This document shows, piece by piece, positions 23,546-23,671 of a DNA stretch of 64,000 nucleotides. This stretch comes from a virus (lineage: Duplodnaviria > Caudoviricetes): positions 11,399-75,398 of the IMG/VR virus record IMGVR_UViG_3300032324_000938, one strand, 5' to 3'. The stretch's first letter is position 1, and each line of letters starts with the position of its first letter. Position numbers and translations under genes: made by a program. Under the pieces are notes generated by a model. That model was given only the letters and a program-made list of their open reading frames with translations, had not been told where the DNA came from and made no database searches.

Positions 23546-23671
23546 TCCAGTGTAGCTCAATGGTAGAGCATGCGGCTGTGGGCCATAAAGTATTATTTAA
23601 TAGAGAGTGCAAATCTCACAAGGCCAAAGTTAACCGCAGGGTTGGGGGTTCGATGCCCTCCGCTGGAGCCA
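23546..23671 (+). tRNA. tRNA-Asn(GTT) interrupted by a 51-nt insert in the anticodon
   Basis: Removing 23580-23630 gives TGCGG-CTGTTAA-CCGCA in an otherwise canonical tRNA with CCA. Confidence 0.85.

Follow-up and report, generated by a model that had tools for sequence, protein, structure and literature searches.

To our knowledge, the established tRNA introns of bacteria and phages are all self-splicing group I introns, and damage repair is the only known job of the Rnl1-type RNA ligases of phages. In the case of T4, the host defence nuclease PrrC breaks the anticodon loop of the host tRNA-Lys, and Pnkp and Rnl1 carry out the repair (reviewed in PMC3400036). The closest described systems are the highly conserved, "enigmatic" tRNA introns of the Lak megaphages, which infect gut Prevotella (Devoto et al. 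2019, PMC6784885). Splicing, its mechanism, covariation, a homing-endonuclease partner, and a link to a ligase are all absent from that report (PMC6784885), besides which our literature search found no account of a mechanism or of a tRNA-shaped phage intron. A second point of reference is collaborative homing, in which endonuclease-less group I introns are associated with free-standing endonucleases (PMC6083498, PMC2790892, PMC3984707). The insert studied here, which interrupts a tRNA-Asn gene of a virus of the Caudoviricetes, has traits of the Lak type: it is placed in the anticodon loop, its removal leaves a canonical tRNA, and it contains a T-arm mimic and an acceptor-like helix. An earlier note, made from the DNA letters alone, had called it an intron of unknown type; this holds for the mechanism, but the type itself had already been sighted in the Lak megaphages (PMC6784885).

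An interrupted tRNA-Asn gene in a jumbo phage

The window, i.e., the whole stretch of 64,000 nucleotides that was analysed (positions 11,399 to 75,398 of IMG/VR record IMGVR_UViG_3300032324_000938), comes from a 75-kb contig that is 24% complete (CheckV). This fragment derives from a myovirus-like jumbo phage and carries a tmRNA besides a large array of tRNA genes. When introns are allowed, ARAGORN identifies at positions 23546-23671 (34944-35069 of the genome) a tRNA-Asn(gtt) with an intron of 51 nt, in agreement with the earlier description of canonical tRNA-Asn halves 51 nt apart; the gene was missed by the default ARAGORN run and by Rfam. The junctions read CTGT/GGGCC...CCAAAGT/TAA (slashes mark the boundaries), and the GT repeat at the ends of the insert results in three possible registers (33/34, 34/35, and 35/36), as had also been stated. 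In the 35/36 register, the 5′ exon (23546-23579) comprises positions 1-35 of tRNA-Asn(GUU) and ends with CUGU, the tRNA-shaped mini-intron spans 23580-23630, and the 3′ exon (23631-23671) comprises positions 36-76 and encodes CCA, all on the plus strand. The exons were delimited from the sequence and from ARAGORN run with introns, together with the identity of the 5′ exon to intron-less alleles and, for the 3′ exon, the exon-haplotype test described below. The intron was delimited by presence/absence relative to four intron-less loci and by a table of its architecture, and its boundary may move by 1-2 nt given the GT repeat. The intact tRNA-Asn(GUU) noted earlier as lying just upstream is an uninterrupted, A/U-rich gene 8 nt away (23464-23537, plus strand; ARAGORN; Rfam 51.7 bits), with the T loop UGCGAUU.

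The excision of the insert in silico produces a tRNA-Asn accepted by ARAGORN in 11 out of 11 exon haplotypes, and the tails and junctions always restore an anticodon loop of exactly 7 nt. The stability of the pre-tRNA fold is not above that of shuffled sequences (z = -0.9). We considered and rejected a tRNA pseudogene, against which stand the folding of all the exon haplotypes as tRNA-Asn and the covariation of the helices of the insert. A relative of 295,831 bp (296 kb), called G001 hereafter, is 100% complete (CheckV), carries the same intron, and is syntenic with the contig of the window at 76-99% identity.

The array and its surroundings hold other unusual genes. A tRNA-like gene at 21946-22021, conserved in G001 at 201001-201076, has an anticodon loop of 8 nt, for which ARAGORN gives the 4-base anticodon CUCU (Glu or Arg), and the T loop UGAAAAU; it may be a tRNA of the frameshift-suppressor type or a non-decoding one. 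Another tRNA-like element (23279-23352, 28.8 bits, just under the Rfam tRNA threshold) has a poor acceptor stem as well as an unusual anticodon loop and sits between a GIY-YIG gene and the intact tRNA-Asn. Non-canonical T loops are found in tRNA-Cys (26903-26980, UGCAAAU), in the intact tRNA-Asn (G at position 55), in tRNA-Phe (24257-24331, AGCGUUA), and in a gene resembling tRNA-Tyr(GUA) that was not called (about 23808-23892, AGCAUUA, with 54/58 swapped). The phage tmRNA (33278-33660, Rfam 110 bits) encodes the tag AEDNVISYDFTSRDVVALAA and is also present in G001, with two substitutions. A thymidylate synthase ORF (44812-45921) has 369 aa, against 335 positions in the profile, and this extra internal length is possibly an insertion.

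Known intron and ribozyme classes

The search of positions 23200-24000 with Rfam, at the gathering threshold and at E ≤ 10, revealed no ribozyme or intron family. A group I intron was rejected on its length of 51 nt, without the P1-P9 ribozyme core (~200 nt or more), on the lack of an Rfam match at E ≤ 10, and on its ends, since those of the 5′ exon and of the intron are U/A, G/G, and U/U in the three registers, never a U together with an omega-G. A group II intron was ruled out because the insert is too small. Sequence and Rfam are therefore in line with what the earlier note had said of both classes. Covariance models of small self-cleaving ribozymes (hammerhead, twister, pistol, hatchet, HDV-like, and hairpin) gave no match either. 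As for a bulge-helix-bulge, defined by two bulges of 3 nt, a helix of 4 bp between them, and cuts that restore the loop, a check by hand on the sequence and the fold showed that C32-U35 cannot pair with the 4 nt preceding the 3′ bulge that the motif would require, in accordance with the claim that such cuts fail to restore the loop. Given that an insert of 51 nt has no ribozyme core, its removal would have to rely on trans-acting enzymes.

Distribution of the insert and empty sites

Pattern scans of IMG/VR and of metagenomes identified 44 locus entries with the same 51-nt insert, some contigs being counted in both collections. The core motif of the insert is confined to tRNA-Asn (16 of 16 occurrences). 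Alignment with four loci (L123, L124, L127, and L130) shows identical exons, syntenic flanks, and a clean gap of 51 nt. A second exon family has its own intron-less relative (L122), with the same exons and flanks and exactly 51 nt missing. Because 44 entries carry the same insert and close relatives show the clean gap, the insert is not the result of chance or of an assembly artefact. It is highly conserved from one genome to the next and polymorphic for presence or absence. The main lineages show 10 differences over the 72 exon positions and 4 over the 51 of the insert, the largest pairwise differences being 12 and 6, respectively.

The collection of homologous inserts, which had been proposed in the earlier note, also brought in unrelated inserts of a common design. 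A metagenome scan anchored only on the exon ends, with the sequence of the insert left free, found further inserts at this site in the tRNA-Asn genes of other phages, four of them sharing the design and covarying with it. Among cultured phages, an insert of this design, 46 nt long, interrupts a tRNA gene of Sinorhizobium phage phiM12 (NC_027204, 94960-95077), the sole Asn-type tRNA gene of that phage. The blastn search of the interrupted-gene region against cultured phages gave no match, and that of the type D insert gave exon-level matches only. Synechococcus phage S-SRM01 was tried as an intron carrier and rejected, its tRNA-Asn proving to be uninterrupted.

Several other RNA genes depart from the standard tRNA. 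In phiM12, a second "tRNA-OTHER" (pseudo) gene of 91 nt (96296-96386; L131:3837-3927) has a good acceptor and T arm and an irregular middle. Relatives of the window have a conserved tRNA-shaped gene of 103 nt with a 30-nt insert in the anticodon loop (G001 199394-199496; L002:4281-4384; L015:8224-8327, minus strand; and others). This insert has no T-arm mimic, but a CACU/AGUG helix along with UGAUG...UGA motifs that recall a kink-turn; ARAGORN with introns called nothing similar in the window. A conserved RNA gene of 142-148 nt (L009:14475-14616; L048:754-901; L029:1805-1946, minus strand) has the acceptor, D, and T arms of a tRNA, with ~70 nt of structured sequence replacing the anticodon arm.

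The insert has the shape of the top half of a tRNA

In shape, the insert corresponds to the "top half" of a tRNA in degenerate form: an acceptor-like helix, a T stem, a T loop, and a tail. Its first 7 nt (GGGCCAU, 23580-23586) pair with the 3′ strand AAGGCCA (23620-23626), which directly abuts the T stem, as in a tRNA. The seven layers of this helix are G.A (G1.A72), G-C, G-C, C-G, C-G, A.A, and U-A, with the core GGCC/GGCC. The T-arm mimic (23603-23619) has a stem of 5 layers, GAGAG/CUCAC, with A.A at the second layer, and the loop UGCAAAU. A 16-nt A/U-rich connector (23587-23602) separates it from the first strand, and the 4-nt tail AAGU (23627-23630), which equals an NCCA end in length, closes the insert; all these elements are on the plus strand. 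The helix strands and the T-arm mimic are identified by covariation and by the architecture table, which also provides the tail. Variants of this insert (type A) have G-C, G.U, or A-U (the last in L045) at pair 2-71, and a C-to-U variant of the T-arm mimic retains the outer pair as G.U. The T loop of the insert is the same as that of the tRNA-Cys of this phage; because of this identity, and because the intact tRNA-Asn has UGCGAUU, a T loop with G55 is not peculiar to the insert.

We aligned the insert types by anchoring each on its T-loop-like hairpin. They are alike in shape only, not in sequence, and in eight out of nine independent types the hairpin is immediately followed by 7 nt that pair with the opening 7 nt of the insert. 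Across the five short types at the same site, 78% of the cells pair versus 60% in shuffles, a value of 78% being reached in 0 of 500, and slid registers bring the pairing down to 18-57%. The same five types show covariation, with 9 of 12 pairs changing on both sides. The longer types (L049, L060, and L078) form near-complete cloverleaves with a shortened anticodon arm. Two parts of the fold proposed in the earlier note, the GGCC/GGCC helix and the T-loop-like hairpin GAG-TGCAAAT-CTC, thus find support in covariation, but its TATTA/TAATA hairpin does not. The latter falls in the connector, which shows no covariation, and its pairs are broken by two independent substitutions (TACTA and GCATT) with no compensation.

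Mobility and association with homing endonucleases

The distribution of the insert suggests that it behaves as a site-specific mobile element. One and the same insert variant is present in both exon families, which differ at about 10 of 72 positions, and at L034 a 5′ exon of family 1 is joined to a 3′ exon of family 2, which results in a G.A mismatch in the anticodon stem. Upstream of the interrupted gene, the window encodes a free-standing GIY-YIG homing endonuclease (22504-23253, plus strand; phrog_314, E = 3e-44; Pfam GIY-YIG, weak); in L127 and L130, two intron-less relatives, its gene is cleanly missing. The interrupted tRNA of G001 is preceded by an HNH gene whose end is a single base away. 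Homologues of these GIY-YIG and HNH genes adjoin 16 of the 44 intron-bearing entries and none of the 5 close intron-less ones (type A), a comparison that is descriptive and not significant alone, and 12 intron-bearing loci with ample flanks have neither gene. The HNH domain of G001 is similar to that of the HNH gene overlapping the interrupted tRNA of phiM12 (47% identity, E = 2e-19) and to the gene beside a type C intron (L043; 41% identity), and the genes beside type D inserts (L055 and L097) are 27% identical to the phiM12 HNH.

This association of an insert with neighbouring endonucleases matches the pattern of collaborative homing. Judging from its distribution, the insert would spread and persist at the DNA level by homing, in concert with free-standing homing endonucleases that would target the intron-less tRNA-Asn gene, their target being split by the insert. 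Two things are absent from the earlier note: the nature of the whole insert as a tRNA-like minihelix, and its mobility in company with homing endonucleases.

A tRNA-Gln(UUG) gene (L060:1559-1690, minus strand) has a 57-nt tRNA-shaped intron, the 5′ part of which resembles the tRNA-Asn intron of L078. This likeness suggests that such introns may move between tRNA species. The intron-bearing tRNA-Asn of L078 lies on a metagenome contig of 1.5 kb, where it adjoins four other tRNAs and a bacterial small SRP RNA (L078:1102-1175; Rfam 42.8 bits); either this SRP RNA is encoded by a phage, or introns of this type are found in a cellular genome too.

Junctions and ends of the insert

The 5′ junction coincides with position +1 of the inner helix, with a U at -1, in eight out of nine tRNA-Asn insert types (35/36 register), the exception being type F. 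Two genes leave no choice of register. In the tRNA-Gln(UUG) of L060, only CUU/G1...UA/UGAC is possible, so that the 5′ junction is unambiguously at the inner +1. In phiM12, if the gene is an Asn one, only CUGU/G1...AGAG/UAA is possible (35/36); we take it as Asn because U1-A72, G73, and the body match phage tRNA-Asn genes, the other registers giving Thr. Since the junction in the outer tRNA is 34/35 in Gln and 35/36 in Asn, the 5′ splice site tracks the numbering of the insert, which would be the behaviour expected of RNase P. The conserved G1.A72 mismatch could serve as a mark of the helix end. The route through a colicin E5-type cut at 34/35, put forward in the earlier note, is disfavoured by the fit of phiM12 (as Asn) to 35/36 only and by the 5′ cut in Gln, which follows the insert +1.

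Other ends are less regular. Type F inserts (L035, L040, and L042) have a leader of 5 nt ahead of the inner helix, and this leader, together with those of ~25 nt in Lak introns, implies that RNase P alone cannot set the 5′ splice site of every member. The 3′ tail has 1 nt in four types, 2 nt in the tRNA-Gln of L060, and 4 nt here, in types B-D (UGAU, AGAU, and AGGU), and in phiM12 (AGAG). The classical cut site of RNase Z is after position 73, which leaves the 4-nt non-CCA tail of this insert unexplained.

Candidate enzymes and a proposed route of excision

The complete relative G001 encodes an RNA ligase of the T4 Rnl1 family (L119:2504-3595; PF09511, 3.6e-15; T4 Rnl1 structures, 1e-10; phrog_562, 4e-38, full length). 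A polynucleotide kinase is encoded within ~5 kb of it (AAA_33, 4e-26), with Clostridium Pnkp, Pnkp1, and T4 PNK as its closest structural matches, and so is a metallophosphoesterase (phrog_547, 5e-39). Phage phiM12 encodes both Rnl1 and Rnl2, with a weak match to a kinase. The co-occurrence of the ligase with the intron was scored in these two complete genomes only, and no Rnl1-type ligase was found on the window's own contig, a 24% complete fragment. RtcB and EndA are absent from G000, G001, three partial relatives, and phiM12, and so is the EndA family PF01974 from G000, G001, and phiM12, a search that covered phage genomes only. The search for RtcB, Rnl, and Pnkp advised in the earlier note was hence positive for Rnl1 in the two complete genomes and for the kinase in G001, but negative for RtcB and for a ligase on the contig itself. 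Intron-bearing loci have no conserved candidate nuclease other than the homing endonucleases.

The anatomy of the insert suggests the following route at the RNA level. Lying between U35 and U36, the insert would fold as the top half of a tRNA. RNase P would cut at its +1, i.e., at the 5′ splice site, and a tRNA 3′-end endonuclease of the RNase Z/BN kind would cut after the tail. The exon halves would stay paired through the outer acceptor and anticodon stems and would have 3′-OH and 5′-P ends that the phage RNA ligase of the T4-Rnl1 type could seal. We regard excision by RNase P and the 3′ tRNA endonuclease, followed by sealing of the anticodon loop by Rnl1, as close to an even call, and the irregular 3′ tails and the leader-bearing members are what keep this specific model on the lower side of it. 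The broader proposal is more tentative: this may be a third tRNA-splicing route in bacteria and phages, in which RNase P and RNase Z/BN excise a tRNA-mimicking intron and T4-type RNA ligase 1 rejoins the exons, with no ribozyme and no dedicated endonuclease; Rnl1 would then have a native role in splicing, and the insert would belong to a new class of mobile introns with GIY-YIG/HNH partners. Among the options listed in the earlier note, protein-assisted splicing fits best, and nothing was found for a decoy or for a nuclease-activated pro-tRNA.

The cuts could also be made by a dedicated endoribonuclease, of phage or host, or by self-cleavage, leaving 2′,3′-cyclic phosphate and 5′-OH ends; the kinase and phosphoesterase would heal these and Rnl1 would seal them, like in the repair by T4 of tRNA-Lys cut by PrrC. 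The set of three enzymes within ~5 kb in G001 is consistent with this explanation, as its kinase and phosphoesterase fit cyclic-phosphate/5′-OH ends as well as a pure anti-nuclease role, and the variable 3′ tail and leader-bearing members fit RNase P and RNase Z poorly. We nevertheless judge it unlikely. EndA and RtcB are absent, there is no Rfam ribozyme at E ≤ 10, the sole conserved nuclease candidates are homing endonucleases that are missing from the 12 well-flanked intron-bearing loci, and the start of the inner helix exactly at the 5′ junction is left unexplained.

The insert may instead be selfish DNA that is never spliced, shielding the gene from the neighbouring homing endonuclease and inactivating this copy of the tRNA, a loss tolerated thanks to the second tRNA-Asn and the host tRNA. 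Here and in G001 an intact tRNA-Asn is present, 8 nt upstream in the window, and a dead gene would therefore be tolerated; moreover, identical exon alleles are known without the intron, so that the covariation of the exons may be older than the insertion. The interrupted gene of phiM12, however, is the only Asn-type tRNA gene there, 11 of the 11 exon haplotypes are still foldable, and the exact 7-nt loop is always restored. An element acting solely as DNA also has no need of an inner helix that covaries at the RNA level across unrelated insert types, and we hold this explanation to be improbable. Least probable of all, and in our view rather doubtful, is that the gene is a production platform from which RNase P and RNase Z release a mini-tRNA as a useful product, e.g., one that acts as a decoy for proteins that bind tRNAs or for defence nucleases that target them, with the exon halves as by-products or decoys that are never rejoined: the insert is indeed better conserved than the exons between the main lineages and retains a complete T-arm/acceptor module, but the different insert types have a common shape and no common sequence, and a released small RNA has no need to be placed in the anticodon with an exact restoration of the loop.

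What the insert adds

Since an intron of 51 nt without a ribozyme leaves the cell or the phage to splice the tRNA with proteins or RNPs, the nature of these enzymes matters, and the anatomy points to enzymes of every bacterium plus a phage ligase. If excision by RNase P and RNase Z/BN with sealing by Rnl1 is true, the "enigmatic" Lak introns would be explained, Rnl1 would gain a second function, and the insert would illustrate how a selfish intron of minimal size avoids doing harm. The new elements here are a CCA-less, mismatch-rich variant of 51 nt in freshwater jumbo phages, the formal covariation across insert types, the exact empty sites, the HNH partner common to several insert types, the explicit exceptions to RNase P/Z, and a cultured test phage. 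As the same design is found in phiM12, a cultured phage of Sinorhizobium meliloti, the question is open to standard RNA methods.

Comparison with known systems

The mascRNA of MALAT1 is likewise an embedded tRNA mimic cut from a longer transcript by RNase P and RNase Z (PMC8457004). It differs in being eukaryotic, in that its flanks are not re-joined, and in that the element is outside any tRNA (PMC8457004). The protein-spliced tRNA introns of archaea and eukaryotes (EndA/Sen, with RtcB or Trl1) share with this insert the short length, the location in or next to the anticodon, and, presumably, the removal by proteins and a ligase (PMC4090602, PMC3400036), whereas here there is no bulge-helix-bulge, no EndA or RtcB in complete relatives, and the site is 35/36 instead of 37/38. 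The route proposed here would share with the repair by T4 of damage from PrrC the sealing of a broken anticodon loop by a ligase of the Rnl1 family, which in G001 is accompanied by a kinase and a phosphoesterase; the break would in our case be programmed in the phage's own gene.

The group I introns of bacterial and phage tRNA anticodon loops, together with the introns engaged in collaborative homing, resemble the insert in their position in the anticodon loop, their site-specific presence/absence, their free-standing endonuclease neighbour, and their split of a conserved target (PMC3984707, PMC6083498, PMC2790892), but the insert of the window has no ribozyme core. The likeness to the Lak introns extends further. 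Both are short anticodon-loop inserts in phage tRNAs with no Rfam match, near-identical across genomes and present or absent between strains (PMC6784885). The Lak introns are longer, with 79-93 nt and a leader of ~25 nt, whereas the insert described here, with 51 nt, is limited to the top half and begins at the inner +1. Yet the sequences of the Lak Tyr and Phe introns (Table S6 of PMC6784885) have the same arrangement at their end, a T-arm mimic and, directly after it, a strand complementary to a segment that lies further upstream.
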